Positions 3,001 to 62,847 of a DNA stretch of 64,000 nt are shown here, piece after piece. The position numbers and the translations under genes were made by a program. Below the pieces are notes generated by a model. It was not told the origin of the DNA. It searched no databases and worked only from the letters and a program-made list of their open reading frames with translations. Numbering within the stretch: position 1 is the stretch's first letter; each line of letters opens with the position of its first letter. The DNA comes from Geosiphon pyriformis uo1 (taxonomy: Eukaryota; Fungi; Glomeromycota): NCBI GenBank assembly GCA_016748015.1, contig JAAOMT010000703.1, positions 618,255 through 682,254 of the forward strand, written 5' to 3'.

Positions 3001-4545
3001 CTCGGAACAGAGCTAGAAAACGCGTCAACACCACAAAAAATTCTAAATTTCTCAGAAATTGCCCTCTACTGTGAACTCACTTCAATAAATTGGCAACAAC
3101 CATTAGAATGCTATCAATTTACACCAGAAAAATTGGCCAAATTAAACATTGGAACAATGGATCCTGACCAACAACGACAATTAAAAGCATTAATTTTAAA
3201 ATATTCTGATATATTTTCAAGAAATGGCAAATTTGGAAGAACCAACTTGGTTCAACACCAAATCCCCACTGGAGACACCAGACCTAAAAAACAATGCACT
3301 TACCGTGTCCCACCAATGGAGCATAATTTTATCAGAAAAGAAGTCCAAAGCATGTTGGAAAAAGGAATAATACAACCATCAATGAACCCATGGTCCTCAC
3401 CAGTTGTTTTAGTAAGGAAAAAGAATGGAAAAATTAGATTTTGCGTCGACTATCGCAAACTAAACAGCAAAACAACCAAAGACTCATACCCAATACTGTA
3501 AATTGACAAAATCTTCGACGTTTTTGAAGGAGCAAAATGGTTTTCTACACTGAACTTGACCAGTGAGTACTGGCAAGTGGAAATGGACCCAAAGGACAGG
3601 CATAAAACAGCATTCACAACACAAAATGGCAATTATGAGTTCAATGTAATGCCATTTGGATTAACAAACGCTCCCGCGACATTCCAAAGACTAATGGACA
3701 TAATTTACTCTGGAATCCTGTGGCAATCCATTGTTGTCTACTTGGATGATACAAATGTTTTCTCGTCAAAATTCACAGATCATCTCCAACATTTACAACA
3801 AGTTTTTGAGAGATTGAGACACGCTGGACTTAAACTAAATCTAGAAAAATGTTTCTTTGGGAAAAATGAGCTAGCATTTTTAGGACACGTAGTTGGAAAA
3901 GATGAAATAAAACCAGATCCATCAAAAATAGACAAAGTGAAAAATTTTCCAGTACTTCGAAACGTTTTAGAAGTTAGAAGCTTTTTAGGACTCGCATCTT
4001 ACTACCACCGCTTTGTAGAAAACTTTTCAAACATCGCCAAACCCCTTAATTACCTACTATCTAAAAATGTGAAGTTTGAATGGACTAAAGCACAACAAAA
4101 AGCTTTTGAGTACCTTAGACAAAAGCTCATTGAATCACTAATAATGATTTATCCGAATTTCAACAAGAAATTCAGTTTGGCCACAGATGCCTTTGGAACT
4201 GGACTTGGAGCCATTCTGTCACAAAAAGATAATAATGGAAGAGAACGTGTAATTGCTTATGCCAGCAGAAGTCTCAGTACGGCAGAACAAAACTACGCAG
4301 CACATGAACTTGAATGCTTAGCAGTAGTCTGGAGTTGTGTTCACTTTGACACATATTTATGGTACCAACTCTTTGAGATTACAACAGATCATAGAGGTCT
4401 GGTCTGGTTAAATAACAAGAAAGTGCTAAAAAAAAAATACGCCAGATGGTCACAAATATTAGCACCATATGATTATATTATCAAATACAAAGAAGGTACC
4501 AAAAATGCTAATGCCGACTGTTTGTCAAGAATGAGACACACATAA
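1..4545 (+). pseudogene. Family A Gag-PR-Cys-rich-dUTPase-RT-RNaseH polyprotein with in-frame stops
   Basis: ORF fragments at 211, 847, 1210, 1558, 1999, 2452 and 3556 are all in one frame; motifs CYFCKCVGH, ASRSNL..GGVIDFGYTG..KIAQ, PWSSPVVLV, MPFGL, YLDD, NADCLSR*. Confidence 0.93.
2290..2715 (+). pseudogene. dut: dUTPase domain inside family A polyprotein
   Basis: All five trimeric dUTPase motifs visible (D-A-x-F-D-L, RS-N-L, GVIDxGYTG, KIAQ, RGTFGF). Confidence 0.9.
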
Positions 4546-4574
4546 AAATCACCAATCCACCCACCACAACAACA

Positions 4575-5954
4575 ATGAACAACCACCTTTACAAAAACCT
4601 CAGCCAATACTTGGAAACACTACAAATAGACAAAGAAATGCTAGTAAAAGAGCTAATTAAGCTCCAAAAATTAGCAAAACACTATTTCATCCAAAATTAC
4701 ATACTTTATTACCAGAATTGACAAAATCCAGATAATCCATTAAGAGTTATAACCACGGATGAAAAAGAAACTATCTTATTTAATATGCACTCAGATATTC
4801 ATTCAGGCCACTTTGGAAAAACAGCAACCATCCAACGTGCAACTAGCCATTACTATTGGCCAAAAATGAGTTCAGACATAATTCAATACATAAGAAATTG
4901 TGACTCATGCCAACAAAGAGGAGGAGCAAAAACAACAGAATTATTAAGACCAATAAAAGTTGGACAGCCATTTGACAGAATCAGAATTGATTTAGTTGGA
5001 CCCTTACCAATAACAACAAGAAACAACCATTATATTGCAGTAGCCATGGACTATCTCACCAAATGGCCAGAAGCTAGAGCTATTAAAACAGCTGATGCTA
5101 TTTCCGTAGCTTAATTCGTACATGAAAACTTAATTTGCCGACATGGATGTCCACAAAAATTACTATCAGATCAAGGCACACACTTCATAAACAGCACCTT
5201 AAAAAAACTTAGCCAAAAATTTGGAATCAAGCGACTACTGTCATCACCATACCACCCTCAAACAAATGGATTAGTTGAAAGATTTAATCGCACATTATGC
5301 AAATCACTGGCAAAAATTAGTAACAAACATAAAAAAGAATAGGATTTGTTCATACCAGCAGTACTACTAGCATATAGAACAGTAAAACAAGATACTACAC
5401 AATTCACACCGTTTGAACTAGTTTATGGAAGAAAAGCCACATTACCAGTTGAACTTACTATCCCAACTTATCTAAGTGACACTATCATGGAAGCAACATT
5501 TCAGGAAACACTACTTAGAAGAACATACGAATTAATGGGAACTTTAGAAAACAAAAGAAGAAAGGCAGCACAAAATATTGAACAATCACAAGAACAACAA
5601 AAAGTGAGACATAATAACCAATTACCAGATAATATAATTAGCTACAAAATTGGAGATAAAGTATTGTTGCATCGTACAAAAATGGAAAAACAGTGGAGTG
5701 GAAAATTTGATCACAAGTGGGATAGACCATTTTATATTCACAAAATACTTGGAAATGGAGCATACAAGCTAAAACTAGATGATAAAATATTAAGAAAAGC
5801 AGCACATGGTAACCGGCTGAAATTCTATTACAGTAAACCAGTAATAACAACAAAAACACCCAGAATTAGAACACAATTACCTTTAATTCTACCAAAACAA
5901 ATTCCACGAGATTTAGAACCAATAGTTTTAATTGAACATTATTCGAAAAGATAA
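4575..5954 (+). pseudogene. Family A integrase, separate ORF
   Basis: ATG at 4575, 29 nt after the RNaseH stop; HHCC (HSDIHSGH...CDSC), IDLVGP, SDQG, GLVERFNR, GPF-like module, tail DLEPIVLIE; no chromodomain. Confidence 0.92.
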
Positions 5955-5996: not shown

Positions 5997-6560
5997 ATGC
6001 ATGCAAAAGATTCCAAAATAACAGTCAAAATTAAAACAANNNNNNNNNNNNNNNNNNNNNNNNNNNNNNNNNNNNNNNNNNNNNNNNNNNNNNNNNNNNN
6101 NNNNNNNNNNNNNNNNNNNNNNNNNNNNNNNNNNNNNNNNNNNNNNNNNNNNNNNNNNNNNNNNNNNNNNNNNNNNNNNNNNNNNNNNNNNNNNNNNNNN
6201 NNNNNNNNNNNNNNNNNNNNNNNNNNNNNNNNNNNNNNNNNNNNNNNNNNNNNNNNNNNNNNNNNNNNNNNNNNNNNNNNNGACAAAACAACTATCCAAC
6301 TATTAGAACCTTTCATTGGAAAAACCAACACTACATTCCATTCAAAAACAGTTTACAGAATTTTCAAAGCATTTGAAAACTGTCACAAATTATTGTTGGA
6401 CCCAACCATGAACATAATAACAACCAACAGTATTAGACGACTTACCAACTTGCAATTTCAAGAATTACAACAACAAATTAATAACACAGTATTGAACCAC
6501 TATAGTAACTTAGAATTTAATGAAGAAATTAACTTCGATTTCGACGGAGCTCAATCTTGA
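5997..6560 (+). pseudogene. Family A ORF3, unknown function, partly in a gap
   Basis: Lies between IN stop and PPT; C-terminus aligns by eye with ORF3 of B, C and D; ends FDGAQS*. Confidence 0.65.
6040..6281. other. Assembly gap
   Basis: Run of N. Confidence 1.
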
Positions 6561-6570
6561 AAGGAGGAGA
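6559..6570 (+). promoter_or_regulatory. Polypurine tract of element A
   Basis: gaaaggaggaga, followed by taa and then the LTR TG. Confidence 0.9.
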
Positions 6571-6573
6571 TAA

Positions 6574-7440
6574 TGTTATGGTTTAAGAATTTAGCAAAAA
6601 GAATCATAAAAATAATACAAACTATTCAATCATAATATAGCACAGTAATAATCTTAGAAAGGTAATGATTAACATAGTAGCAAACACCATCTCGCAATAG
6701 TGGCAAGCACCAGTTCACAATAGCAGCCAACACCAACTGGTAATAGCAGCAAACACCAGATTGAAATATCAAAAAGAAAGTATTTTCTTGTAGAACTACA
6801 AACATGTATATATACAGTAGTTTTAATATTGGGAAATAATCAATCAAGTAATAAAAATCATAACTTATCAAGCAACAGATCCAATTTTATCCAACAAACT
6901 CCACTTTAAATCATACTTTCAAATTAAATATCTCAAAAAATCTTTAAAAATTAAAAAGAAATAAAAAAGAATATTTAAAACGGAACTATCACAACCCAAA
7001 GTATTAAGAAACTTACTTGTATTATTTATTGAATGAAACTATCATTCATCAACTGAATCCCTTGGAAGAATAATCCTTGATCAAGATTATTCACGTTGTT
7101 ACTAATTGATAAAAGCTTTATTGTGAGAATTAGAAAAGCACTAAAGACCATTAACATTCTGTGTTTCTAAATTAGAGAAACACATCAGGCAATTGCAAGG
7201 ATAGCCTCAGAGAAGACCCCAGACAGTGGGTAGATTTCAGTTCAGCCTCCTAGAAGAAGTACATAAACACACACAACAATCAAGAATTAAAGAATAACTT
7301 ACATCGCAACAGTAAAAAGAAAGTTTTCAGTGTAACAGTGACATTATCACACAAATAGAATTGAGGAACTCACAAAAGACTGATTGCAATTAAAGCGGGA
7401 TATCAGCAATTAAATATAACAAGAAAACCATCTTGTAACA
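6574..7440 (+). repeat. 3' LTR of element A (867 bp)
   Basis: TGTTA...TAACA ends; near-identical to 18975-19767; TATA-like gtatatatac near 6806. Confidence 0.95.
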
Positions 7441-8986: not shown

Positions 8987-9970
8987 ATGAATATACAAAA
9001 ATATTAACAACTTCAACATTTTATAAATACTCAATGGTTTAAGGAGAAATTATCTCAAAAGGAACAAAACCATATCAAACAACAGTCCAAATATTTTATT
9101 ACTTACCAAAATATACTTTATTGGAAAAACAGAAAAAATCCAGATCAACCAACCAGAGTAATCACAAAACCAGAAAAAGAAACAATATTATTCAACATGT
9201 ACTCTGATTCAACAGCAAGACATTTTCACAAAGAAGCAATCATAAAAAGAACCAAAAATAAATACTATTGGCCATCCATGTACCCAAACATCATTCAATA
9301 CATGCAAAATTGTGATGCTTGTCAGAGAAAAGAAGAAACAAGATCCAGTGAGCCATTAAGACCAATCAAAGTAGAACAACCATTCAAGTATATTGAAATT
9401 GACTTAGTTAGACCATTAACAATAACTAACAGAGAGAACAGATACATCACAGTAGTCATGGATTATCTCACTAAATGGCCAGAAGCAAAAGCAATTCAAA
9501 GAGTAAATGCAGAATCCATTGTCAAATTCATTTATCAAGATCTGATTTGTTGACATGGATGTCCAAAAGAATTATTATTCGACCAAAAAACTCACTTTGT
9601 GAATAGAACATTAACAAAACTGAGTCAAAGATTCGAAATAAAGAGACTATTATCATTACCATATCACCCACAAACCAATGGATTAGTTGAAAGATTCAAT
9701 AGAACATTGTGCGAAACAATAGCCAAGATCAGCCAAAAAAACCAGAACAAATGAGATTTATTCATATCATCAATATTATTTGCTTATCAGACAATGAAGC
9801 AAGATACTACATAAGCAATACCATTTGAATTAGTATACAGTAGAACAGTAACATTACCAGTTGAGATAGAGATTAATACATATCTAATGGAACCAATAAC
9901 AGAAGACAATTTCCAAGAAACATTGCTAAGAAGAACATATAACTTAATGGAAATGCTAGAAAACAAATGA
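8987..9970 (+). pseudogene. Element B integrase, 5' part (3' part about 40163-40547)
   Basis: Own ATG at 8987; ORF 9197-9553 with CDAC and DYLTKWPEA; GLVERFNR. Confidence 0.88.
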
Positions 9971-10939
9971 CATTACCAGTAGAATTTTAGCTATTAATTA
10001 GCATAAAATTACCCTCATAATTTCTATTATTAATTAGCATTTATTATTATTATTTTAATTATTACTTATTATTTAATCAAATTATCAAATATCATTACTT
10101 AATCAATAATCCGATTTGTATTCTAGAAATTAAGATGATCAAATTACACAATACTCTGAACCATTTAACATAGTCAAAATTCGCCGAAATCAATGAAAAT
10201 TGGCCGAAATAATCAATAGTTCAGTGAAATAACTTGTAGTTTGCCGAAATTATCTTTAGTTTACCCAAATTGTAGCAAAAAGAAAAATGCAAGTTCAAAG
10301 ACTAGTACTACAACAGGTTGTATAAAAGAAGAGCTTTTCTCTTCAAGAAAATGTATCTTTTCATAATATCTTAACATAGTATCTTACTTTAGATATCTTA
10401 ATTGAAACAAATCATCTTTTACATATTTCAAATAAAAATTAAATATTCAAAAAACAAATTCTTTGATTATTACATTTGAAATTCCCTAAACACAACTAAT
10501 ATTTTGAAATTGATTAGCTACCAATTTCAATAAACTGTTAGTGACTCCAGGCATGAATAGAAAACGTTTCCCTTGACAGAATTCTATTTCTTTTACATTT
10601 CTTTTATTTTTCTTTTATTTCTTGTTACAATCATTAGAATAGCCTACAAACGAGATTCCTGTAGAAGAGTTGACTTTCACAGCAAAGTAACTACACATTT
10701 TAGTAAGCTTCCAGACAAGCAATTCCTGGGAAAGAGTTGATGTTTACTACAACATAATTACATAAAGTAACTGACAAAAAATTGGCCATTTCACTCATAA
10801 GTCCAGCAGTTCAAATTATAAGAGATAATTTGAAGATAAATTCAGTTACTGAAGGTCCAACTTCTTCCTGAAAACGTGAATTCACAGCAAATCAATATTA
10901 ACAACATTCAAGAAAAAAGACCAAAAACCTCCAGTAACA
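9971..10939 (+). repeat. C1 5' LTR (starts CA instead of TG)
   Basis: cattaccagtagaatttt...ccagtaaca; matches 39204-40162. Confidence 0.92.
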
Positions 10940-19767: not shown

Positions 19768-22700
19768 ATGCACTCCAATACCAAGCTGTAGTCAGAAATG
19801 ATTGGCTTCTCAAGGCCAATGCAAACCTGAACTGGAAAACTCAAGAACTTAAAATCTCATACCAAGGACAATATACCATAGTACCTGCAACCTGTGGTAT
19901 CTTTAACAAACAATCAGAAAAAGCTCCAGTATTTGAATTTGAAGAAGAGAAAGAAATGCCACTCACTAAAACTTACATGGCTCTTGAATCACCATTCAAT
20001 TGGGCTGAAGAAACAGAACAAGAGATTTTTGAAGAATTAAGAGAATAGAAAAAAGTTAGATATTCCACACCAGAACCATGAAAAGAACCACTATACATTC
20101 CACTAAAATGCAAAGATTGCAAAAAGAAGCTTTCATCTATGGGAGCCTGTATTTCTCCAGAAGAGGAATACGAAACTTGCACTTACTACTTCTGCAAAGC
20201 ATGCCATAGAAAACGATTTGGATCCCCAAAGAGAAGTGGAAAATGGGACAAAACTTCTTGTCTTACTTGTGGAAAAAGGCTACCAGAAGAATGCAATTGG
20301 ATTAATATAGCAATGAGAGAAGGAGTATGTGATCAGACCTGTTAATATGCTCTATCAATTTTGGAAAAAGTCAGAAGAAGAACACCATTTGATGCAGCAT
20401 ACAACAGTGCTTTCAATAAACTTTACCACTACCCTTATGATGCTAAAATAATTTTTGACTTAGCAATAGCATTGATCAATAAAGCCACCCAAGAAGATGG
20501 CTGCCAAATAAAAGAAGCTGAATACATTGAGTATATCATAGAATTAGCTGGATTTGATTATGAAGATGAAGTAAAAACCTACCACCAAATTGCAAGCCAC
20601 ACATATCTGACCAAAGAAGCTCAAATTCAATGATTAGAGCAAATAAACATTCAGTTGTGTGAAAAATGTGTTATGCCTTGTGATGACCAATGGTGTTTAG
20701 AATGTTATGCTCTCAGCATTCCTCTGCCAGATGAGAATAATGAAAATGAAATCGAATTTGGAGTATCTAAACTAGTAGAAAAACTACCAACCACCCCCAT
20801 CTATCTTCTTGAAAAGCAACCATCTCTACAACTTAAATATTTTGACAACCATGGCCAAGGAATCAGACCAAAAAAAACACACGAAATTGATGCTGGATAT
20901 GACCTAAGATACTCAGGAAAAGATACTTTGGTTCTCCAACCAAAGTCTTTGACAAAAATCAATCTCAAAATTGCTCTTGAAATTCCACCAGGAGCAATGG
21001 TTCAAATTGCCTTCAGATCATTATTGGCAAGCAAAAGAATCAATATTAGAGGAGAAGTTATAAATGCAGAATACACTGGAGACATTACCATCATGTTACA
21101 GAATAAGACAGACAAACCATTCAAAATTGAACATGCTGAAAAAAATTGCTCAAGCAATTTACTTACTCTTAATCAACATTTCGAGTTTACAATCAGTAAA
21201 CAACAGAGAACAATTGGAAAAAAGTGAAAGAAGAACTTAAGGTTTTGATTCAACTGGACAATTTACAGTTTCAGTAAACATAGCTCTTAATACACAAAAT
21301 GAATCTCACCAGATTCTTCAATTTTTCCAGCCAATTACCATTTCACCTTTTGGAGAACATCACGAAATTTACACTTGCTCAAAACCCACCACTACACAAC
21401 AAATCTTTGAATCCAATGAACAAATCTGTTTAAAGCATGAAATCTCAATTCCAAACGTTTATATTTCCAAAGAAATAAAAAAATTTTGAGTTATATTCTA
21501 CAATCCCAATAATTACTTTATTGTTTTATTAAACAAAGTGGAGATTGGAATCATACACAGCAATATTTTTCAAGATAAAAACCCTCATATTGTCTCTAAT
21601 TTTATCGAAATTGTAAAGCACACTCTATTCCCAAATTCAAATATCATTTTCACTACTGAAAACTACCACTTTTTGGAAGAAAAACTCTCTCGAATCAACA
21701 TGGATCTCTTAGAACCTTAACAACAAAGACAATTGAAACAATTGATAGCTAAATTTGCAGATATATTTGCAAAAGACAACAATGATCTGGGAAAAACAGA
21801 TATGGTTCAACATTAGATCCATACAGGAGATGCTCTACCAAAACATCAGCAAGCTTACAGAGTGCCATCTGTTAGCCACCAATTCATCAGAGAAGAAGTC
21901 CAGAGAATGCTCAATAATGGATTGATTCAACCATCAAGAAGTCCTTGGGTCTTATCAGTAGTTCTTGTCAAAAAGAAAAATGGAAAAATCAGATTTTGTG
22001 TTGACTATTGCCAAGTGAACAGTATGACAATTGAAGATGTCTACTTTCTTTTAAGAATTGATGACATGCTAGATGCTCTAGGAAAAGCCAAGTTTTTCTC
22101 AACTTTAGACTTGGAAAGTGGATACTGGCAAGTCGAAATGGACCCAAAAGACTAATCCAAAATAGCATTTACCACCCAAGGAAGAAACTATGAGTTCAAT
22201 GTTATGCCTTTTGAACTCTGCAATGTACCAACAACATTTCAGCGACTTATGAATGTTGTATATAAAGGGCTCTTGTGGCAATTAGTAGTTGTTTATCTTG
22301 ATAACACTGATGTATACTCACCAAGTTTTGAGACTTATTTTATCCACCTATGAGAAGTTTTTCAACAATTATGGAAAGCAGGATTGAAGTTAAACATTGA
22401 AAAATGTTACTTTGAAAAAACAAGCTTAATCTTTCTTGGACACATTGTTAGCAAAGATGGAGTCAAACCAAATCCAGAAACAATCAGTGCTGTCAAAAAC
22501 TTTCAAACCCCCAGAAATACCACAGAACTAAGAGGATTTGTAGGATTAGCCTCTTACTATCAAAAATTCATCAAAGGATTCTCAGAAATTGCCAAACCAC
22601 TCAATTATCTTACCAATAAAAATGTGCCATACAAATAGACTGAAGAACAACAAAAAGCATTTAAAACCCTCAAAACAAAGCTGACAACAGCCTCAGTTCT

Positions 22701-23164
22701 TGCTTACCCAGACTTCAACAAATGATTTCAACTAGCCACTGATGCTTTACACATAGCATTTGGTGCCATCTTATCACAAGTAGATGAAAATAGGCAAGAA
22801 CAAGTCATCACTTATGCTAATAGAACACTCAAACCAACAGAACTAAAATATGGCTCAACTGAATTAGAAGCTGCCGCAGTTATTTGGGCTTTTAAACATT
22901 TTCAACAATATCTGAAGAATGGAAAAGAATTTGACATAATAATGGACAATATTGGCCTCAAATGGCTTAATAAAAAGAAAACTGAACAAAGTGTCAAACA
23001 GTTTTGATGGAATAACTTCCTAGCAGACTACAGATATATTATACACCACAAACCAAGAAAACTACATACCAATGTTGATAGCCTCTCAAGAATGAGACAA
23101 AATTAATACCAACAACAAATTCCACCACAACTTACCAACCTACCAACAAAATAACCAAACAAGA

Positions 23165-24563
23165 ATAAATCCCAGAAATTACAGCAATCTTAAAAATTAT
23201 TTGAAGACTCTTACCATGCCAGAAAACTGGTTTCCAAGTAAAAAACATTATTTACAACACCAATCAAAACAATATTTCATACACCAGAACAAAATCTATT
23301 ATAAAAATTACAGAAACCCAAACCAACCACTCAGATTAGTACAAGAGAATGAAAAAGAAACAATTTTATACAACATGTACACAGATCTATCTTCAGCACA
23401 CTTGGGAAGAGATGAAACAATTCAAAGAATTCTTAAACATTATTTTTGGCCTCACATGCAAAAAGACATTTGACAATATGTAGAATCTTGTAATAGTTGT
23501 CAAAGAAGATGAGGAACTCACCTCACAGAATCTTTAAATCCAATCAAAGTTAGACAACCTTTTGACAGAGTTGGAATTGATTTAGTCGGACCATTATCTA
23601 TCACAACCCAAAGAAATCGCTATATTGCAGTAGCAGTAGATTATCTTACCAAATGGTCTGAAGCTAGAGCCATCCAAAGAGCAGATGCAAAATCAGTAGC
23701 AAATTTCATCTATAAAGACATTATTTGTAGATATGGATGCCCAATTAAACTTTTATCTGATCAAAGAACACATTTTGTGAACAACTTGATACAAAAAATT
23801 TGTAAACAGTTCAATGTCAAAAGACTTCTATCATTACCTTATTACTCTCAAACAAATAGACTTGTAGAACGTTTCAACAGAACATTGTGTGAATCTCTAG
23901 CCAAAGTCTCAACAGACTTTAAGCAGGAATGGGATATCTTTATTCTATCAGTGTTACTAGTATACAAAATGCTAAAACAAAATACTATGAAACACATATC
24001 ATTTGATTTTACTTATGGAAAGACAGCAATATTACCAATTAATTTCATAGTGGAAACATATCTAGTACAACCAATCAATAAAGAAAACTTTCAAGAAACA
24101 CTCCAAAGAAGGGCCTACACTCTTCTTAGTACACTGGAAAGAAAAAAAAGAATAGCAGCAACTCATATTGAACATTCCCAAGCTCAACAAAAAGAAAGAC
24201 ATAACAATAAATTACCACCTATTACCAACGAATTTAAAGTTGGAAATAAAGTTTTCTTACACAGAACTAAGACTGAAAAACAATGAAATGGAAAATTTGA
24301 AAACAAATGGGATGGACCATTTTATATTTATGAAATTCTAGGCAATGGATCATACAAGTTAAGACTTGATGACAAAATACTAGCAAAAGTTGCACATGGA
24401 AACAGATTGAAACATTATCATTCCAAAAACAATCCTGAAACATTAATTCCACAAATTGGTACACATTCCCTTTTAATTAATCCTGAAGATATTTCCCAAA
24501 ATTTAGAACCAATAATTATAATAGAACAACAACCAAACTTGAACACTAAAATTATACAATAAT
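23165..24563 (+). pseudogene. C2 integrase, separate ORF (start decayed to ATA)
   Basis: HHCC region, IDLVGP, LVERFNR, WDGPF, NLEPIIIIE. Confidence 0.88.
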
Positions 24564-24676: not shown

Positions 24677-25384
24677 ATGATTATTCTCTGAAATATTCAA
24701 CAAATATCCCAAAAGTTAATGTTAGCCTTGAAAACATTTCTTGACTTATCCATAATGATTAATAGAAGTTAAATTAATTACATTCAGAAAGAAATCACAG
24801 CCCCAATAGCAAATCATTCACAGAACTATCATCTCTATAGAAGAAAAACAAGAAGCCACTCTGAAAATAAATTACCAAGACTTTTGAAGCAAGCACTAGA
24901 AGAAAATTTTTTAATTGCCCCTATGGACATTCCACCAAATACTACAATGCAACAAAAATTTTTACTACTTTTCAATGAACAGAACAATGAACACACCCTT
25001 ATCTATAAATACTTTCACATTGGAAAGACATTTTATGAACAAAAACTGAAACTTGAAGCAACAAATCTCACTCCTAAAGCTATACAAAAACAAATCTACA
25101 ATGAATTCAAAACAGCAACTGGACCAACAAACACTCACTACAAACTTAGAGCAGCTTTTAGACTCTATGATTTGTTTAATACTTGTGAAAATGTTCTACA
25201 AAATCCAATACTGCAACCAATGAAAGTCCAATACATTGGCAAACTCACAGAACTGAAATTTCAACAATTTTCAGATCAGATTACTTCAATTATTTTGGAT
25301 CACTATCTCAATATTACAAATAGTGCTTGGACTTCAATGGAGCTCAGTCTTGAGGAGAAGATTATGTTACCAGTAGAATTTTAG
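24677..25384 (+). pseudogene. C2 ORF3, unknown function
   Basis: 708 nt, same length and frame as C1 38516-39223; reads through the PPT into the LTR. Confidence 0.8.
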
Positions 25385-26334
25385 CTATTAATTAGCATGA
25401 AATTACTCTTATAATTCCTATAATTAATTAATATATTAATATCATTTCAAATTATCATTTATTATTTAATTAATTATTACATATCATGATTCAATTAAAA
25501 TAATCTAATTAGTATAACAAAAAGTAGGATGATCAAATTACACAATACTCTGAACTTTGTAACATTCTAAAATTCGCTGAAATTTATAAGAAATTCGCCG
25601 AAATTTATAGAAATTCACCGAAATTATGAATAGTTCAGCAAAATAACTTGTAGTTCATCAAAATGTATCTTTAGTTTGCCAAAATTTGAGCAAAAAGAAA
25701 AAGTGCAAGTTCATAGACTAGTACTACAACAAGTTGTATAAAAGAAAAGCTTTTTTCTTCAAAAAAATGTATCTTACTTTAGATTTATTACTTAGAACCA
25801 TTCCTACACACACAAAAAGAAATAAATATCAAATAATTCAAAAAACCAAATTCTTTAATTATTGCACTTGAAAAATTCTCAAAACTCAACTAACATTTTG
25901 AAATTGATTAACTACCAATTTCAGTAAACTGTTAATGACTCCAAGTCTGAATAGAAAACGTTTCCCTTGATAAAATCCTATTTCTTTTACATTTCTTTTA
26001 TTTTTCTTTCTTTTCTTATTACAATCATTAAGGTAACTTACAGACAAAATTTCTGTAGAAGAGTTAACTTTCACAGCAAAGTAACTACACATTTTTAGTG
26101 AGCTTTTAGATGAGCAATTCTTGAGAAAGAGTTAACATTTACTATAATGTAACTACATAAAGTAACTGGCAAGGAATTGGCCATTCCACTTATAAGCCCA
26201 GCAGTTCAAATTATAGGAGATAATTTGAAAATAAATTCAGTTATTGGAGGTTTAACTACTTCTAGAAAACGTGAATTTGCAACCAACAGATAGTTACAAC
26301 ATTCAAGAAAAGAGACCAAAAACCTTTGGTAACA
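25365..26334 (+). repeat. C2 3' LTR (970 bp)
   Basis: Preceded by PPT gaggagaaga; matches the 5' LTR. Confidence 0.95.
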
Positions 26335-29300: not shown

Positions 29301-31986
29301 CACTGGAACCTATAGAACTCGACTGGAATGAAGAATCAACCATAAATTTTCTGGAACCAGAAGAATTTCATGAACACTATCAAACTTTGGCATCCACAAA
29401 AGAAGAACAAGAAGAGCATTTAGCACAGTTAAACACTTGATTATGTGACCACTGTTTGGTTTCATGTGACTTTCAATATTGTAATAAGTGTGACCTCATT
29501 TACAATCCACTACTGCACATGATCTACACAATTCCAGAGAAAGAAGAACCAATCAGCAGCTGCACATCAGAATTGGAATCAATGTTCAATTCCAATTCAA
29601 ACTTTAACAACAACAATGATAAAAACAATGGTTTCAGCTCCACTTCAAATAGCAACAAAAATTATAATGATTCAAACTCCAATTCAAATCCTGAAACATT
29701 TATTGTACTTCTTGATCTTTCAAAGAAACAGAAACTCAAATGGGTATAGTGATAATAATGAAGATATCATGCCAGAACACATATATGATACTGATGCAGG
29801 GTTTGATCTGAGATATTCAGGAAAAAAAGCCATCAAATTGGAACCAAATTCACGCATATGTATTGATCTCAAAATAGCTCTGGAAATTCCAGCAACAACC
29901 ATGGTCCAATTAGCATCTAGGAGTAGTTTAGCAAAAAAAAGAATCAACATCAGAGGAGGAATAATTGATGCGAAATACGTAGAAAATATCATTGTCATGC
30001 TACAAAATGACTCAGAAAAGACCTATATTATAGAACTAAATAAAAAGATAGCACAGGCAATATTCTTACCTCTGGTGAAAATAGCTCAGTTAGTTTCAGT
30101 AGGAAAGAGAGAAAAATTAGGTATAACAGCAACAGAAATTTGGATCAACAGGTAGAATAGATATATCAGTTAATATGGCAGAAGAAAAAATTGTTGACAA
30201 AGAAGAAATTATCTCAACTCATCAAACAATTTTCATTCCGCCATATGACCAGTATATGTTAGCCATAAAAAGAGAAGTAAGAGATCAAGCTCAATTGTTT
30301 GAAGCAAAAGCCACTATTTGTAAATTAGAAGAGATTGGACTCATTAATTTCTACATATCAGCCAAGAGCTCCAAAAACATCAAAATCCTCATATATAACA
30401 CAACGGGAAAAGTCATCAAAATACCAAAGAGAACTATCATTGAATATTTAACCACTGAAGTTGAGGATCAACCACTAAACCACATTCCAGATTTTCCACA
30501 GCTTTGTGAATATGTGGACATTACATCACAAACCATTTATGGAAGAAGTGAATGTTATCTGCTCCAACCAGAACAATTAAAACAGATAAACATGAGGAAT
30601 CTAGATCCATTTCAACAAATACAATTAAAGATATTACTCAGAAATTTTAATGACATCTTTGCCAGTGAAAATGAATTTGGCCACACCAACATCATCCAGC
30701 ATCAAATCAAGACTGGAGATGCAATGCTAATTAAACAATGAGCATACAGAGTATCACCAGCTAGCCATAAAATCATTTGTCAAGAAATCAACCAGATGCT
30801 TAACAATGGGCTAATTCAGTCATCAATGAATTCATGGTTGTCACCAGTAGTACTAGTCCATAAAAAAAATAGAAAAATCCATTTTTGTATAGACTACTGA
30901 AAACTGAATGGAGTAACTAAAGATGATAGCTATTCAACTCCAAAGATCCAAGAACTATATGATGCTTTTGGAGGAAATAAATGGTTCTCAACACTAGATT
31001 TAAATAGTAATTACTGGCAAGTAGCCATGGATCCAGCTGACAAAAAAAAAACAGTGTTCACCACAAGAGAAGAAAATTTTGAGTTTGAAGTCATACCATT
31101 TGGCTTGATGAATGCTCCAGCAACATTCCAACAGCTCATGGAAATTGTCTATATTAGATTACTATGGAAATTAGTAGTTATGTACTTGGATAACACCAAT
31201 GTGTTCTCAAAAACATTCGATGATCATTTGCATTATCTCCAACAAGTGTTTGAAAGATTGAGAAGAGCAGAATTGAAACTAAATGCAACCAAATGTTTCT
31301 TTGAAAAAACTGAATTCAAGTTTTTGGGACATGTAGTAAGCAAAGATGGAATCAAAACGGATCCAGACAAGATTAAAGTAGTTAAGAACTTTTCAGTACC
31401 AACTAACTTGACAGAACTAAGAGCATTTTTAGGTTTTACAGACTATTATTGCCATTTTATTAAAGACTTTTCAAAACTGGCTTAGCCATTTCACCATCTA
31501 TAGACCAAGAATGTAAAATATGAATGGACTGAAGCTCAACAAGAAGCATTTGACACATTAAGAAGAAAGCTTATCCAAGCTTCAGTATTGATGTATCCAG
31601 ATCACAGCAAACCATTTATAATTACCACTGATGTATCAGGTCAAGCATTGGAAGCAGTACTATCACAAAAAAGATCAGATGAAAGAGAACATCCAGTAGC
31701 TTATGCCAGTAGAAGCTTAAGTCCAGCTGAGAAGAACTATGGAACTCCAGCACTAGAACACTTAGCTATCTATTAGGCTGTCATCAAATAGAAGAAATAC
31801 TTGAGTCAAAAGTTTAAAGTATACACTGATTATAAAGAATTGACTTCAATCCAGAAACAAAAATTTGCAGATAACCACTATATCAGATGAAAAATAGAAC
31901 TTTCACTATTCAATTATACAGTACATTATAAAAAGAGAAAAGACAATTGAAATGCCGATGGACTGTTACAAATAAGACAAATCTAA
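26339..31986 (+). pseudogene. D Gag-PR-Cys-dUTPase-RT-RNaseH, 3' part
   Basis: YAPIAKLEKF, CHYC..H, LILDSGSAG, AGFDL/ASRSSL/GGIID/KIAQ, YLDN. Confidence 0.9.
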
Positions 31987-32016
31987 AAACATTTCAACCC
32001 AAAAATATAACAAAAG

Positions 32017-33393
32017 ATGAACACACAAAAATACCAACAACTTCAACATTATATAAATACTCAATTGTTCAAGGAGAAATTATCTCAAAAGGAACAAAAC
32101 AATATAAAACAACAATCAAAATATTTTATCAATTATCAAAATATACTCTACTAGAAGAACAGAAAAAATCTAGATCAACCAATTAGAGTAATCACAGAAC
32201 CAGAGAAAGAGACAATATTATTCAACATGTATTCAGATCCAACAGCAGGACATTTTTATAAAAAAGCAACTATAGAAAAAACCAGAAAAAGATATTATTG
32301 GCCATCAATATATCCAGATATTATCTAATATGTTCAAAATTATAATGCTTGTCAAAGAAGAAAAGGAACAAGATCAAGTGAATCATTAAGACCAATCAAA
32401 GTAAGACAACTATTTGATTGCATTAGAATTGACTTAGTCAGACTATTAACAATCACCAGTAAAGGCAACAGATATATTGCAGTAGCCATGAACTATCTCA
32501 CAAAATGGCCAGAAGCAAAAGCCATTCAAAGAGCAGATGCAGAATCTGTTGCCAAATTCGTCCATCAAGATTTGATATGTTGACATGGATGTCCAAAAAA
32601 ACTACTATCAGATCAAGAAACTCATTTTGTAAATAGAACATTAACAGAATTAAGTCAGAGATTTGGGATAAAAAGACCATTATCGTTACCATATCATCCA
32701 CAAACAAATGGACTAGTCAAAAAATTTAATAGAACACTATGTAAAGCAATTGCCAAAATCAGTCAAGAAAACCAAGATGAATGGGATTTGTTTATACTAT
32801 TAGTATTATTTGCTTATTGGACAATAAAACAAGATACTACACAAGCAACACTATTTGAATTGGTATATGGTAGGACAGCAACATTACCAGTTAAGAGAGA
32901 GGTCAGCACATATCCAACTGAACCAATAACAGAAGCTAATTTCCAAGAAACATTGTTGAGAAGAACATATGACCTAATGGAAACACTAGAAAACAGATGA
33001 CGAAAAGCAGCTGATAATATTCAAAAGTCTCAAGAAAAGCAAAAAAAATGACATGATAACTAATTATTAGATAAACCAGTTGAATTCAAGATTGGAGACA
33101 AAGTACTTTTACATCATACCAAAGTAGAAAAACAATGAAGTGAAAATTTTGATTCCAAATGGAATGGACCATTTTACATAGAAGAAATTCTTGAAAATAG
33201 AGCTTATAAACTAAGATAAAACAACAAAACCTTAGCCAAAGCAGCACATAGTGATTAACTCAAACCATATCACCAAATAACATTATCATCTACCAATAAT
33301 ATTTCACAATTAGGAGTACAACAAATACTAGTTCAACCAAATAAGATTTTATGAGATCTGAAACCAATTATAATCATTGAACCAAACATGTAA
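32017..33393 (+). pseudogene. D integrase, separate ORF
   Basis: ATG 30 nt after the ORF1 stop; DDE-region motifs; tail DLKPIIIIE. Confidence 0.87.
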
Positions 33394-33453: not shown

Positions 33454-34080
33454 ATGGAAATACCAGATCATATTCACATCATAGCTCAACAATTATTTCA
33501 GGCCTTAAGTTAACAATTTTTAAACATGGAAATTATTGTTAACAACCAAACAATTTGCTATTGAAATACCAAAAGAAAAACAAAGAATACACCATATCAA
33601 CGGTTACCAAAAAATGATAAAAACTGGTCAAACAACATAATAAAAAAAGTAAAAAACACTTTTGGAAAAATGGCACCAACAGAAGAACTTACAAAAGAGA
33701 ATTGGAAGCAATGGACAGAACAACTTCCAATATTATACTGTTACTACCAGCTAGGCCGAAAGTTAAATATTCAGGAGTTGTATATCAACAAATCCAAGAG
33801 AATATTTAACCAAAACATAATACAGCAAATTGAAGAATTTATTGGAAAAAAAATGAACTTAACACTACATGTAAGAACAATTTATTGACTGCACAACATA
33901 TTTCAGAACTATCCAGAAATACTGTTACACTCTGACATGAAAACCATAACCATTAATCAATGGAGAAAAATGAACAATACACAAGTAGAAAATGTGAAGA
34001 ACAAAGTTGAACAAACAATACTTGAAAAGAAAGTATTAGAATTAATTCAAAATGAAGATTTTGATGGAGCTCAATATTAA
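33454..34080 (+). pseudogene. D ORF3, unknown function
   Basis: MEIPDHIHIIAQQLFQAL...EDFDGAQY*; N-terminus resembles B and C ORF3. Confidence 0.72.
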
Positions 34081-34093
34081 AAAGAGGAGATAA

Positions 34094-34960
34094 TGTTACT
34101 CATAAAAAGAAAACAGATATAGAAAATAGCAGACCAATAAGAGAATAGTATTTAGCATGTGAGCACATTGCTCAGCAATATAGAGCAATATCAGAAATTA
34201 TGGCACATTGTTTAGCAATGTAGAGCAATGTCAGAAAACATGACACATTGTTCAGCAATGTAAGTATTGCTTAGCAATATGAGCATTGCTCAAGAAATCA
34301 TAGCACATCGCTTGGAAATGTGAGCAATTTCATAGAACATCAATTATGTATATATAGCAATAGCATTAGAAGTAGAAAAAGCAGAATCCTTTAGTTAGAA
34401 ATCTTCCATCCACAAATATTAAATAAATAAATCATCTACTATTCAAATTCACTCTCCACTATCAACACTTCATGTTGATAGTAATTGATACTTAACTACA
34501 CTGGAACAATAGCTCTTGATTATGGTTATTGACAAGATACTAACTTGTATATTGTCTTGACTTTTTTTTTTATTTTTTTTTATTTTTCTTTTGTTTTTTT
34601 ATTTTTCTTGTTGAATACTAACTGATTAAGGATTAAAGTGCTAAGTAATTGACATCACAGATAGTCTGGTAAAAGACCCAGAAATAAGGGTAAAATTATA
34701 TATATATTATTAGATAGCTTACCAAAAAAGCACAAATGCCAGAATAAATCTGGCCACCAAGCTAAGAAAGAAATTGGGAAAACAACTTGAGAATACAACC
34801 ACCATCAATCTTAAAAGATCTCTGTCCATTATACAAAGAACTTAACTCTAAAACCTTTAGATACAATTAACATACTAGTATTACCAGCCTTATCAAGATA
34901 TTGAGCACCAAATTACGGATTTGTTATTTGATTTAAGACCCCAAATAATCATCTGTAACA
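34094..34960 (+). repeat. D 3' LTR (867 bp)
   Basis: PPT aaaagaggaga-taa, then tgttact...tgtaaca. Confidence 0.94.
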
Positions 34961-37900
34961 ATGCTAAAAAGATTGCCCAAGCAATTTACCTATCCTTAAT
35001 CAACATTTCAGGTCTACAATCAGTCAACAACAGAGAACAATTGGGAAAAAGTGAAAGAGGAATGCAAGGTTTTGGTTTAATTGGATGATTTACAGTATCA
35101 GTAAACATAGCTCTTAATACACAGAATAAATCTTACCAGATTCTTCAACTTCCCCAACCAATTACCATTTTATCTTTTGGTGAACATCACGAAATTTACA
35201 CTTGCTCAAAACCCACTACTACCTAACAAATCTTTAAATTCAATGAACAAATCTGTTTAAAGCATAAAATTTTAATCCCAAATGTTTATATTCTCAAAGG
35301 AATGAAAAAATTCCAAGTTATATTCTACAATTCCAATAATTACCCCATTGTTTTATTGAACAAACTAGAGATTAGAATCATACACAGTAACATCTTTCAA
35401 GATAAAAACCCTCAAATTGTCTCTAATTTCATCGAAATTATAAGACATACACTACTTTCAAATTCAAACATCATTTTTACTACTGAAAACTATCACCTGT
35501 TAAAAGAAAAACTCTCTTGAATTAACATAAGTCCCTTAGAACTCCAACAACAAAGACAATTGAAACAACTGATAGCTGAATTTGCAGATATATTTGCAAA
35601 AGACAACAATGACCTTGGAAAAACTAATATTGTTCAACATCAAATTCACACAGAAGATGCTCTACCAAAACAACAACAAGCCTATTGAGTTCTACCTGCT
35701 AACCACCAATTTATCAGAGAAAAGGTCCAAAAAATGCTCAATAATAGATTAATTCAACCATCAAGAAGTTTTTGGGCCTCACCAGTAGTTTTTGTCAAAA
35801 AGAAAAACAGAAAAATCAGATTTTGTGTTGACTATTAACAACTAAACAGTGTCACAATTAGAGATGCCTATCCTCTACCAAGAATTGATGACATATTAGA
35901 TGCTTTAGGAAAAGCCAAGTTTTTCTCAACTTTAGACTTAGAAAGTGGATACTGATAAGTCGAAATGGATCCAAAAGATCAACTCAAAACAGCATTTACC
36001 ACTCAAGGAGAAAACTATAAGTTCAATGTTATGCTTTTTGGACTCTGCAATGCACCAGCAACATTCCAATAACTCATGGATGTTATATATAAAGAACTCT
36101 TATAGCAAATCAGTAATTGTTTATCTTGATGACACTGATGTTTACTCACCAAACTTTGAAGCCCATCTTATTCACCTGTGAGAAGCTTTTCAATGATTAC
36201 GGAAAGCAGGATTAAAGTTAAACATTAAGAAATATTACTTTGGAAAAACAAGCCTAATTTTTCTTGGACACATTGTTAGCAAAAAAAGAGTCAAACCAAA
36301 CCCTAGAACAATCAGTGCTGTCAAGAACTTTCAAACTTCCAAAAATACCATAGAGCTATGAGGATTTGTAAGATTAGCCTTTTGCTATAAAAAATTCATA
36401 AAAAGATTCTCAGAAATTGCCAAACCACTCAACTATCTTACCAACAAAAACGTGCCATATTAATGAACTGAAAAACAACAAAAAGCTTTTAAAACTCTCA
36501 AAACAAAATTGACAACAGCTCCAGTTTTTGCTTATCCAGACTTTAACAAACAGTTTCAACTAGCTACTAATGCTTTACACATAGCTTTTGGTGTCATTCT
36601 ATCACAATTAGATAAAAATGGCCAGAAACAAGTCATTGCCTATGCCAGCAGAACACTCAAGCCAACAGAACTCAAATATGGCTCAACTGAATTAAAAGCT
36701 GCCACAGTCATTTGGGCTCTTAAACATTTTCAACAATATCTGAGGAATGGAAAAGAATTTGATATCATAACTGACAATATTGGCCTTAAATAGCTCAATA
36801 AAAAGAAAACTGAACAAAGTGCCAAACAGTCTTGATGGAATAACTTTCTAGCAGACTACAAATATATTGTATACTACAAACCAGGAAAACTACACACCAA
36901 TGTTAATAGCCTCTCAAGAATAAGACAAAATTAATAATACCAACAAATTCACTACAACTTACCAACCTACTAACAAATAACAAAACAACAATAGATTTCA
37001 GAAATTACAACAATCTTAAAAACTATTTAAAGACTCTTATTATGCCAGAAAATTAGTTTTCAAGTGAAAAACATCGATTACAACACCAATTCAAACAATA
37101 TTTCATACACTATAACAAAATTTATTACAAAAATTGTAGAAATCCAAACCAGACTAATACAGAAAAATGAAAAAGAAACAATCCTATACAACATGCATAC
37201 AGATCTTTCTTTAGCATACTTAAGAAGAGATGGAACAATTCAAAGAACTTTTGAACATTATTTTTGGCCTCACATGCAAAAAGACATTCGAAAATATGTA
37301 GAATCTTGTGATAGTTGTTAAAGAAAAGAAGAAATTCATCTCACAGAACCTTTAAATCCAATCAAAGTTGGACAACCTTTTGACAGAGTTGGAATTGATT
37401 TAGTCAGACCATTATCTATCACAACCCAAGAAAATTGTTATATTGTAATAACAGTAGATTATCTCACCAAATGGCTTGAAGTTAGAGCCATTCAAAGAGC
37501 AAATGCAAAATCAGTAGCAAATTTCATCTATGAAGACATTATTTGTAGACATGGATGCTCAATTAAACTTTTATCTGATTAAAAAACACATTTTATGAAC
37601 AACTTGATACAAAAAATCTGTGAACAATTTAATGTCAAAAGACCTCTATTATTATCTTATTACCCTTAAACAAATGGACTTGTAGAATAGTTCAAAAGAA
37701 CATTGTGTGAATTTTTAGCCAAAGTCTCAACAGACTTTAAGCAGGAATGAGATATCTTTATTCCATTAGTGTTACTAGCATACAGAACACTAAAACAAAA
37801 TACTACAAAACACATACCATTTAATCTTACTTATGGAAGGACAGCAACATTACCAATTAATTTTACAGTGGAAACGTATCCAGTACAACCAATCAATGAA

Positions 37901-39223
37901 GAAAACTTCTAAGAAACACTCCAAAAAAGAGCCTACACTTTCCTTAGTACATTGGAAGGAAAAAGACATATAGCAGCCACTCATATTGAACATTCCCAAG
38001 CCCTACAAAAAGAAAGACATGACAGCAAACTGCCACCAGTTACCAACAAATTTAAAGTTGGAAATAAAGTTCTCTTATACAGAACTAAGGCTGAAAAACA
38101 ATGGAGTGGAAAATTTGAACATAAATGAGATGAACCATTTTATATTCACGAAATTCTAGACAATGGATTATACAAGTTAAGACTTGATGACAAAGTACTA
38201 ACAAAAGTTGCACATGGAGATTGATTGAAACAATTCTGAATCATTAATTCTACAAATTGGTACACATTCCCCTTTAATTGATCCTAAAGATATTCCCCAA
38301 AATTTAGAACCAATAATTATAATAGAACAACAACCAAACTTGAACACTTAATTTAACATTTTTTACAAACTCCTTTAAAATACACAAAACAAATCAAAAA
38401 TAGTAAATAATTAGAAGAAATATTCAAACCCAAAAACAAATAAAAAAACCCTATACCCAAAAATAATTTTTTTTATTCTTTTTCAAATTTTGTTTATTAG
38501 TTAGTCATTTTTATTATGATTATTCCTTGAAACATTCAACAAATATCCCAAAAATTAATGTTAGCTTTGAAAACACTTTCTGACTTATCCATAACGATTA
38601 ATGGAAGTTAAATTAATTACATTCAGAAAAAAACTACAGCAACAGTAGTAAATAATTCTCAGAATTATCACTTCTATAGAAAAAAAACAAAAAGTTCCTC
38701 TGGAAATCAATTACCAGAACTTTTGAAACAAGCACTAAAAGAAAACTTTTTATCTGCCCCTATTAATATTCCACCAAATACCACAATGCAACAAAAACTT
38801 CTACTATTTCTTAATGAACAGAACAATAAACATACTCTTATATATAGATATTTTCATATTGGAAAAACACTTTATGAATGAAAACTAGAACTGGAAACAA
38901 CCAACATTACTCTTGAGGCTATACAAAAACAAATTTACAATGAATTCAAGACAGCAACTGAACCAACAAACACTCATTACAAACTTAGAGCAGCATTTAG
39001 ATTCTATGATTTATTGAACACTTGTGAAAACATCCTACAAAACCCAATACTTTATCCAATGAAGATTCAATATATTAGAAAGCTTACAGAACTGAAATTT
39101 CAACAATTTTCAGATCAGACCACTTCAATTATCTTGGACCATTATTTTAACATCACAGATAGTGCTTGGACTTTGATGGAGCTCAGTCTGGAGGAGGAGA
39201 TTATGTTACCAGTAGAATTTTAA
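34961..39223 (+). pseudogene. C1 3' part: dUTPase end, RT-RH (stop 36934), IN (36991-38351), ORF3 (38516-39223)
   Basis: Collinear with C2 21133-25384. Confidence 0.9.
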
Positions 39224-40627: not shown

Positions 40628-41399
40628 ATGAATCTTTCAGACAAAATTTTAAAATTATCTAAACAATTATTTAACAAAATTCAAAAATCTACATCTCAAA
40701 TAAAAATTATAATCAATAAAAAAGAGATAAGATATAGAGATAAAGGGAAAAGAGAGATGAGTAAGAGTTTAACTAAAACTAACTATTTTCATCTCTACAC
40801 TCCACCCAAAAAAGAAATTTTACAAAAAAAAATTAAATATACTTCTCAGGCAGGATGTGGAAAAAAAGGAGAAGAGAAAGAAAAAAGAGTGAAAAAATTA
40901 GATAAAAAACAAAAACAATTATATACAACATACTTAGCCCTTGAACTAGAAAAAATTAAAGAATCTTTAGCTCGTGAAACCAAACTCCCCAAAACAGGAG
41001 AGTGGACACCAAACAATGCCCAAGAGTAGAAAAAAAAAACTTCCTTCAACATATTGGTTTTACAAAATCAGAGAACAACTAGACTTAGAAAACCTATATG
41101 GAGACTACAACCAGAAAACTTTCAACAAAGAAGCAATGCGATAAGTAGAAAAATTCATAGGAAGGAGCAACCTGACACTATACTATAAGACAGTATGTTG
41201 ATTATATGTCACTTTTCAATATTGTTCAAATGTACTATTGAATGGATCTTTGAAAAAGATAACAGTTAACAACATAGAACAAATAATCAATTAACAGTTC
41301 AAAGATCTACAAAAAGCCATACTCAACATAACCATTGAAAATTACATAAACAAAGTTCTATTAACAGACATAACCAACTTTGCAGAAGCTCAATATTAA
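40628..41399 (+). pseudogene. B ORF3, unknown function
   Basis: MNLSDKILKLSKQLF...NFAEAQY*; same position as, and similar ends to, D ORF3. Confidence 0.7.
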
Positions 41400-41414
41400 A
41401 AAAAAAAGAGATAA

Positions 41415-42332
41415 TGTTACTTGAAAAAAGAAAGCCTATCAAAGAAAAAAGGAAAAATGTGACTTAAAAAAAAATGTGATGAAATGTAAAAGGACACAGA
41501 ATAGCATGCAATAATGTTGGATAACATGTTATAATATAGAATAATGCGTTATAACATGGGATAATGTGTTATAATGCAGAATAACACAGAATAATGTGTA
41601 ATAATATCAAATAACATGTTATAACATAAAATAATTAGTTATAATGTAAGAAAATAAAGTAATAGCTAGCAAGAACAAACAATTCAAAGCAATTCTGTAA
41701 AACTAGAAAATACATATATTTAGCAGTAGTATTAAAAGCAGAAAAGACAGAATCCCCAGACAGAAATTCATTAGTTATCATTTCCCAGTTAGAAATCATA
41801 TCATTCCAAAATATTAATAAATATACTTATTCAGCATCTCAAATCCAATTGTTTATTATCAACTCTAAATGTTGATAGTAATTGATACTTAAAATATGTA
41901 AGAACAATAGCCCTTAATTATGGTTATTAACAGGATACTAACTTATATTGCCTTGGCTTATTGTCATTATTTTTTTCTTATCTTTTTATTTTTGCTTTAT
42001 TTTGTTGTATATACTAATTAATTGAGGATTAAGCACTAAGTATTGACATTAAGGATTGCCTGGTAAAAGACCCCTGCAAGTGGGTAGAACACATAAGAAT
42101 TATGGATTGCTTACTAGAGAATTGCCAGCTATCACGCTAAGAAAAAAATTGACAAAATTGTGATTCCAGAAAGCTATAAATAAAATAACATAAGAATTTC
42201 TGTCCATTATACAAAAAACTCCAATCAAAACCTTCAGATTAAAATACTTTCAAACATTACTAATATTATCAATTGAGCACCAAGTTATGGGTTTGTTATT
42301 TGCTTTGAGACTCCAAATAATCACTTTTAACA
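41415..42332 (+). repeat. B 3' LTR
   Basis: After A-rich PPT plus taa; tgttact...taaca; 3' half homologous to the D LTR, U3 different. Confidence 0.88.
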
Positions 42333-55257: not shown

Positions 55258-55308
55258 AAAACACAAAAACCAACACTCAACTTAACCAACCAAAACAGCC
55301 AACAAACA

Positions 55309-62640: not shown

Positions 62641-62847
62641 TTAATTTTATTATTATTTTAACTATAATTAATCTTAGCTAATTTAAAAATTTTAATAAAT
62701 ATAATAGTTTTTTATAAAAAATTAAAATAAATAGAACATATTTTTTAAAATATTGTTTTTAAGATCTTAAATAAATTAATTTAAAATTTATAATATTTTG
62801 TATTAATAACTTTGATTAATAATAAAACCCTTTGTCTCCTTAATTTT

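Follow-up and report, generated by a model that had tools for sequence, protein, structure and literature searches.

The window, a 64,000-nucleotide stretch of the Geosiphon pyriformis genome, is a nest of decayed Ty3/Gypsy LTR retrotransposons, as revealed by self-comparison and reading of the junctions. Element B contains C1, which contains D, which contains C2, which in turn contains a solo A LTR; one A element is inserted in B, and C3 lies further on. The elements code for gag with a zinc knuckle, protease, a cysteine-rich region, dUTPase, reverse transcriptase (RT), RNase H, and integrase, with gag, protease, RT, RNase H, and integrase in the Gypsy order. The Pfam families matched are Retrotrans_gag, Ty3_capsid, Asp_protease_2, dUTPase, RVT_1, RT_RNaseH, Integrase_H2C2, and rve, and the elements are further characterized by TG...CA LTRs, a polypurine tract (PPT), and the primer binding site TGGTGCTC. 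Downstream of the C2 integrase lies ORF3 (Table 1), a decayed copy of a third gene of this dUTPase-bearing Ty3/Gypsy element that is conserved by selection.

Several other features of the nest were observed. All five nested insertions (A in B, C1 in B, D in C1, C2 in D, and solo A in C2; window 1-42340) are on the strand of their host element. The target-site duplications at six sites are alike, 4 bp of the form A-Y-R-N (ATGC, ATGA/ATGG, ATGA/ACGG, and ACAG), and at least two of the six sites could derive from A-CG-G by CpG decay, hinting at CpG-centred targeting. The 5' LTR of C1 begins with CA rather than TG (window 9969-9972). Between protease and dUTPase, A, C2, and C3 encode a cysteine-rich region of about 200 aa with several CxxC pairs, for which no Pfam match was found. 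In C3, about 250 codons precede the capsid domain, and the first 177 of these (window 49631-50161) are without a Pfam match above the cut-off; an open frame of 360 aa on the minus strand (61595-62677) likewise has no Pfam match. Immediately upstream of the PPT, a GATGGAGCTCA-like DNA word is conserved in several lineages; because its reading frame differs between lineages, it is probably a cis-element.

Table 1 ORF3 and associated features of the nested elements (window positions unless marked L001)
Feature	Position	Strand	Basis or remark
ORF3 of C2, 235 codons, decayed	24677..25384	+	ATG at 24677, stop ends 25384
N-terminal module of C2 ORF3, predicted helix plus two-strand hairpin, residues 1-38	24677..24790	+	P0011 model, pLDDT 56-71
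C-terminal seven-helix domain of C2 ORF3 (predicted), residues 87-214	24935..25318	+	model and alignment column table
AT-rich spacer, integrase stop to ORF3 ATG, C2	24563..24676	+	sequence
Polypurine tract of C2, overlapped by ORF3	25352..25364	+	sequence
Integrase of C2, own frame	23165..24562	+	58 nt past RNase H stop; start codon reads ATA
5' LTR of C2	15648..16637	+	LTR comparison
3' LTR of C2 (TG...CA)	25365..26334	+	93% identity to 5' LTR
ORF3 of C1	38516..39223	+	three internal stops; 81% aa identity to C2
ORF3 of C3	56817..57533	+	two internal stops; 62% aa identity to C2
ORF3 of D, 208 codons	33454..34080	+	three internal stops; full-length relative P0123
ORF3 of B	40628..41399	+	frameshift near 41030 plus stops
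ORF3 of A, visible C-terminal 92 codons	6282..6560	+	remainder in N run
C-lineage U3 array, TTCGCCGAA-type palindromic units, ~20-bp period	25572..25683	+	TATA-like site ~25736
A-lineage U3 array, 4 units, 23-bp period	6680..6758	+	
D-lineage U3 array, CATTGCTCAGCAAT-type palindromes, 40- and 19-bp period	34166..34290	+	
B-lineage U3 array, ATAAYRYRTTAT palindromes, 10- and 20-bp period	41521..41644	+	
RNase H-integrase junctions	4545-4575, 23106-23165, 31986-32017, 36934-36991, 55257-55309; L001 774-799		
Target-site duplications	7441, 9967-9970/40163, 15644-15647/26335, 18974-18977/19768, 34962, 48590-48593/58490		
Cysteine-rich region	52260-52900 (C3); also ~20100-20720, ~1540-2250		
GATGGAGCTCA-like word	6540-6573, 25330-25364, 34055-34093, 41380-41414		

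The ORF3 of C2 is interrupted by stops at codons 5 and 32, and its longest stop-free frame (24773-25384) spans 203 aa; P0011 and P0027 are full-length relatives. The ATG sits 114 nt past the integrase stop, and at its other end the gene overlaps the PPT and extends 20 nt into the 3' LTR. The initial annotation had placed an ORF between integrase and PPT in every family. A homologue indeed follows the integrase at each of the six 3' ends of elements in the window, but it stops just before the PPT in A, B, and D only, whereas in the C lineages it crosses the PPT and runs 20 nt (C1 and C2) or 32 nt (C3) into the LTR. ORF3 also runs into the LTR in L001, a metagenome locus described below. None of the six window copies is shown intact: five contain stops or a frameshift, and that of A is cut by a run of Ns. 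The start proposed earlier for the A copy, at 5997, finds no support: database proteins of the A type (P0134) begin differently, about 130 residues upstream of the visible part, and the A start therefore probably lies within the N run at 6040-6281. For D, P0123 represents the full-length version. The N-terminal and C-terminal blocks described as shared in the initial annotation both align across lineages.

A separate integrase ORF is unusual for Gypsy elements. In all six elements examined, a stop codon follows RNase H and the integrase is a separate ORF, in varying frames, so that the elements have three separate coding units. The spacers between RNase H and integrase are 24-58 nt long and A/C-rich, with at most one G, and three of the six lack any AG; the integrase starts with ATG in four elements and with ATA in two decayed copies. 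No conserved splice acceptor was found before the ORF3 ATG, the last AG being located at -6 to -86, and TATA-like sites occur upstream of ORF3 in three of seven copies (background, 8 of 83 pol windows). In the C2 spacer, there is no AG in the final 83 nt and no TATA-like site. Altogether, neither a conserved splice acceptor nor a promoter that would account for ORF3 expression was found.

Possibly, ORF3 is a partner of the integrase or of the particle, which would help nuclear entry or steer insertion into older elements in place of a chromodomain. Pfam searches with two integrases (A and L001) returned no chromodomain family among the matches, and the five same-strand nested insertions in kin elements, with their 4-bp A-Y-R-N target sites, fit such a role. 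However, the target sites are alike in A, C, and D despite ORF3 identity of only 21-39%, and nesting is expected in a genome of which LTR elements make up 41.2% (PMC11952901). We consider this explanation unlikely.

A database search for ORF3 gave 187 relatives at E <= 0.001, and all 120 listed are G. pyriformis proteins annotated as hypothetical, so that more than 100 annotated 'hypothetical proteins' of this fungus (120 of the 120 listed matches) are reassigned to transposons; 20 of these 120 run from the start motif to the end motif and are full-length versions. A profile search of 1.84 billion representatives yielded 84 ORF3 matches; among the ten that were looked up, eight come from G. 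pyriformis and two are metagenome proteins. The metagenome locus L001 has the order RT-RNase H, integrase, a spacer of about 315 nt, ORF3, PPT, and LTR. Its ORF3 is intact, 230 aa long, occupies the same place as in the window, and shares 27-32% identity with the C copies. The ORF3 family is thus present beyond a single species. The metagenome scan gave no locus other than L001 among at least 597 pattern matches listed, the viral contigs searched contained no relative of P0169, and a literature search conducted mostly outside subscription journals and supplements found no report of this ORF3 family.

In the Atlas search, the C-terminal domain of P0176 resembles Mucoromycota protein clusters without a name (scores 0.95 and 0.94), and 25 of the 30 Atlas matches lack a Pfam family. 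Coming from Atlas scores rather than from alignments, the likeness to the Mucoromycota clusters is a lead only. It would fit a captured host gene hitch-hiking on the element. Against such an origin stand the fixed position of ORF3 at the six window ends and in L001, the purifying selection described below, and the many gene models, among the 75 profile matches listed, that are fused to integrase, gag, or LTR sequence; we consider capture of a host gene quite improbable.

The ORF3 gene is kept by purifying selection. Comparison of C1 with C2 gave a dN/dS of 0.21 (bootstrap CI 0.12-0.33), and the other two C-lineage pairs gave 0.22 (0.14-0.33) and 0.30 (0.21-0.44). Substitutions at the first, second, and third codon positions number 33/17/56, 69/36/93, and 62/39/81 in the three pairs, with a third-position bias in each (p <= 7e-4), and the alignment gaps between the C-lineage genes, 3 and 12 nt, are multiples of three. 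Because the LTR pairs have diverged by 6-9%, these dN/dS values include neutral decay after insertion, and the constraint in active lineages is therefore probably stronger. For the same C1-C2 pair, the integrase yields 0.76, a near-neutral value that mostly reflects decay. Between lineages, the ORF3 dN/dS is weak evidence because synonymous sites are close to being saturated and several of the intervals extend to 1. In contigs that we guess to be DNA, the depth of ORF3 is of the same order as that of the integrase, depth here not being a measure of copy number.

Between lineages, protein identity is 21-39% for ORF3 versus 52-63% for the integrase (comparisons with A cover the C-terminal 92 codons only), in agreement with the earlier claim that ORF3 diverges faster than pol. 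Separately, dS between C1 and C2 is 0.14 in the integrase and 0.48 in ORF3 (24677-25384 vs 38516-39223), a mismatch that suggests recombination between the integrase and the ORF3-LTR module.

The window bears signs of methylation. The CpG observed/expected ratio across the window is 0.24, and 199 of the 208 substitutions between LTR pairs (9971/39204, 15648/25365, and 48594/57502) are transitions, found in all dinucleotide contexts; the CpG depletion and the excess of transitions match the expectation under methylation. In related fungi, transposons are methylated and are a source of small RNAs (10.1101/2021.03.30.436303). These strong signs of methylation, along with fast divergence under purifying selection, would suit a sequence-independent silencing antagonist that binds a host RNAi or methylation protein. 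Yet, ORF3 showed no similarity to any known suppressor, and such an antagonist leaves the lineage-specific U3 arrays described below unexplained, so that this role, too, appears unlikely.

The AlphaFold2 model of the full-length protein consists of an N-terminal helix and hairpin, for which the confidence is modest, a basic linker predicted to be disordered, and a confidently predicted helical domain. The N-terminal module aligns in all lineages with a visible N-terminus. Modelled alone, the C-terminal domain is predicted to form seven helices (pLDDT 87.4, pTM 0.79); its conserved positions are Y.Y/F.IG, G.TN, R/Q-L-Y..F, LL, and N.IG.LT. The maximum hydropathy over 19 residues is 1.25 in the C2 ORF3 and 1.37 among the 20 full-length relatives, none of which reaches 1.6. 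Judged by hydropathy alone, ORF3 has neither the transmembrane anchor nor the hydrophobic leader of an env protein, and, because there is no membrane segment, the product is not env. The initial annotation, which anticipated a soluble, mainly helical, non-env accessory protein without a signal peptide or transmembrane segment, agrees with the hydropathy and the predicted fold. A remnant of env, or a factor for movement between nuclei or cells, is therefore an extremely improbable identity for ORF3, and env is largely refuted: the gene does occupy the env position, but the full-length copies are free of membrane segments by hydropathy, the protein has one or two cysteines, the predicted fold is soluble and helical, there is no match among viral structures, and nothing was found in support of a movement role.

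No search gave a significant match to a named family. Pfam gave nothing at the curated cut-off for the ORF3 members, the best PHROGs match has E 0.0012 in one of 15 members, and the PDB sequence search returned a single match, with E 0.87. Foldseek, proposed earlier as a check, found nothing at E <= 0.001 for the full model against the PDB or for the full and C-terminal-domain models against viral models, and the best VIA structure comparisons (Z 6.0, 5.8, and 4.2) are in the background range for helical domains (Z up to 6.0). These structure searches bear mainly on the C-terminal domain and barely cover the N-terminal module. Neither observation that would have spoken against the accessory protein, namely a lack of purifying selection between families or a clear match to a known env or host gene, was made. 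According to the models, the ORF3 product appears to represent a defined, foldable family without a named relative.

One candidate relationship was pursued and, at the level of profiles, rejected. The helix-turn-helix (HTH) domains of ParB and KorB and DUF1016_N have a helix order similar to that of ORF3 and look-alike motifs; DUF1016_N is a weak Pfam match (E 0.037 in 2 of 53 members), the Atlas row for this type scores 0.85, and the few structural rows spanning the whole domain include Spo0J (Z 4.3, rmsd 4.3, 93 aligned) and KorB (Z 4.0, rmsd 4.6, 95 aligned), both with Z at background; further rows are Raf1 (Z 4.0-4.2) and P1 ParB (Z 3.0). However, profile-profile comparison of ORF3 with ParB (a profile of 29 sequences from 29 of 30 loci) gave a probability of 0.33%, a level that 20 of 40 shuffled profiles also attained, and comparison with DUF1016_N gave about 1%, with one of 40 shuffles as high, whereas the positive control, ParB against DUF1016_N, reached 94%. 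The would-be recognition helix is conserved at 15 of 19 positions between the C2 and C3 types, compared with 20 of 23 and 23 of 27 in its neighbours, and so is no more conserved than these.

Alternatively, ORF3 could act on the element RNA, as a Rev- or CERV-like export factor or as a re-initiation factor for integrase and ORF3 on a polycistronic RNA. Such a function would be consistent with the invariable stop after RNase H, the short, G-poor spacers, half of which lack AG, and a basic patch at residues 51-62 (median net charge +3); minor Atlas rows point to a closterovirus coat protein (0.93) and a phage translation repressor family (0.90), and the CERV protein of Cer1 sets a precedent (PMC10309623). 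Nevertheless, ORF3 matches no RNA-binding family in sequence or fold, the closterovirus coat protein (PF01785) is absent from the structural rows listed and no coat-protein family is among the 25 Pfam families listed for 53 members, and a general translation factor would do little to explain the fast, lineage-specific divergence. On balance, an RNA-directed role seems rather unlikely.

Each of the five lineages (A, B, C, D, and L001) carries its own U3 array of short motifs upstream of a TATA-like site. The units of B, C, and D are palindromic, with a phasing of about 10-20 bp that widens to 40 bp in part of D, and the U3 of L001 has a looser motif set; the B unit presumably resembles the fungal MCB box. 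Each motif occurs three to six times in its own LTRs, and one of the 28 cross-lineage cells is non-zero; because the patterns were drawn from the same LTRs, chance counts are circular and only this exclusiveness is informative. No U3 motif was detected ahead of ORF3 in the window.

We propose, with a probability of roughly 0.35, that the ORF3 product is an element-specific LTR regulator that binds the U3 array of its own lineage. This is our best guess because the repeat array ahead of the LTR TATA box differs from lineage to lineage. The protein would be expressed from the 3' end of the element, enter the nucleus, bind the phased U3 units of its own lineage, probably as a dimer formed through the N-terminal module, and then either promote LTR transcription or shield the LTR from methylation silencing. 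The lineage-exclusive arrays ahead of a TATA-like site in five lineages lend circumstantial support to such a transactivator or sequence-specific anti-silencing role, and ORF3 changes between lineages much faster than the integrase, as a specificity factor would. The failed HTH profile test, the background Z scores, the variable charge of the protein (pI 5.4-9.3, that is, not consistently basic), and the ordinary conservation of the would-be recognition helix argue against it. LTRs often contain repeat arrays, which may serve as sites for host factors. If binding between the five ORF3 types and the five U3 motif types proves cognate, a fungal retrotransposon would be seen to encode its own means of countering silencing or of activating itself.

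A broader, more doubtful possibility is that these elements represent a Glomeromycotina Ty3/Gypsy lineage with a design akin to that of complex retroviruses, comprising gag-pol, a separate integrase, and a self-encoded, sequence-specific LTR regulator; the latter would then belong to a new protein family evolving in step with the U3 repeats of each element family. If so, VANC and Tas would have their equivalent in a retrotransposon, and the design could help to explain how LTR elements have come to occupy about 40% of the Geosiphon genome.

Additional ORFs on the sense strand (aORF-3S), located between pol and the 3' LTR, are a described category (PMC7264820), elements with a dUTPase are known from fungi and some fungal Gypsy elements are drawn with an extra ORF whose function is unknown (PMC2864245), and dUTPase-bearing bdelloid elements possess varied ORF3s (PMC5408684); for the terms searched, the accessible text of a survey of fungal LTR elements (PMC3248453) has no passage on such an ORF. 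The Geosiphon ORF3 resembles these ORFs in position, sense strand, family-wide presence, conservation, and unknown or varied function (PMC7264820, PMC2864245, PMC5408684): it lies on the sense strand between pol and the 3' LTR in the six window elements and L001, and both the dN/dS values and the 187 relatives indicate that it is kept in most copies under purifying selection. As far as the accessible descriptions go, the aORF-3S and bdelloid ORF3s are env-like with membrane segments or are enzymes (GDSL, DEDDy), unlike the Geosiphon protein, which is predicted to be soluble and helical, belongs to no named family, and in some lineages is encoded across the PPT and into the LTR.

VANC, Tas, and CERV can be regarded as functional analogues only. 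A precedent for the proposed regulator is the binding of VANC, the anti-silencing protein of the VANDAL DNA transposons of Arabidopsis, to tandem motifs specific to each family (PMC5735166), and the analogy is with a fast-evolving element protein, signs of methylation, and family-specific tandem motifs in non-coding DNA of the element, here the distinct U3 arrays of five lineages. In contrast to ORF3, for which binding is proposed here, VANC has been demonstrated to bind, its host element is a DNA transposon, and the protein contains DUF1985 and DUF287 domains, neither of which is among the Pfam families listed for ORF3 (11 members; 53 members, 25 of 62 weak families). Foamy virus Tas/Bel1 is likewise the product of an accessory gene near a retroelement 3' LTR and binds its own LTR (PMC517496, PMC4929722); it differs in belonging to a retrovirus, with the gene after env and an internal promoter, and no sequence or fold link to ORF3 was found. 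CERV of the C. elegans element Cer1 is a non-env accessory protein of an LTR retrotransposon but is translated from a spliced mRNA and exports genomic RNA (PMC10309623). Extra ORFs of LTR retrotransposons are a known category, yet almost none outside env has a function assigned. Against this background, ORF3 is a real, conserved accessory gene of a fungal Gypsy lineage, without a named family and with a proposed function, and it adds a defined protein family in an abundant group of elements of a symbiotic fungus.
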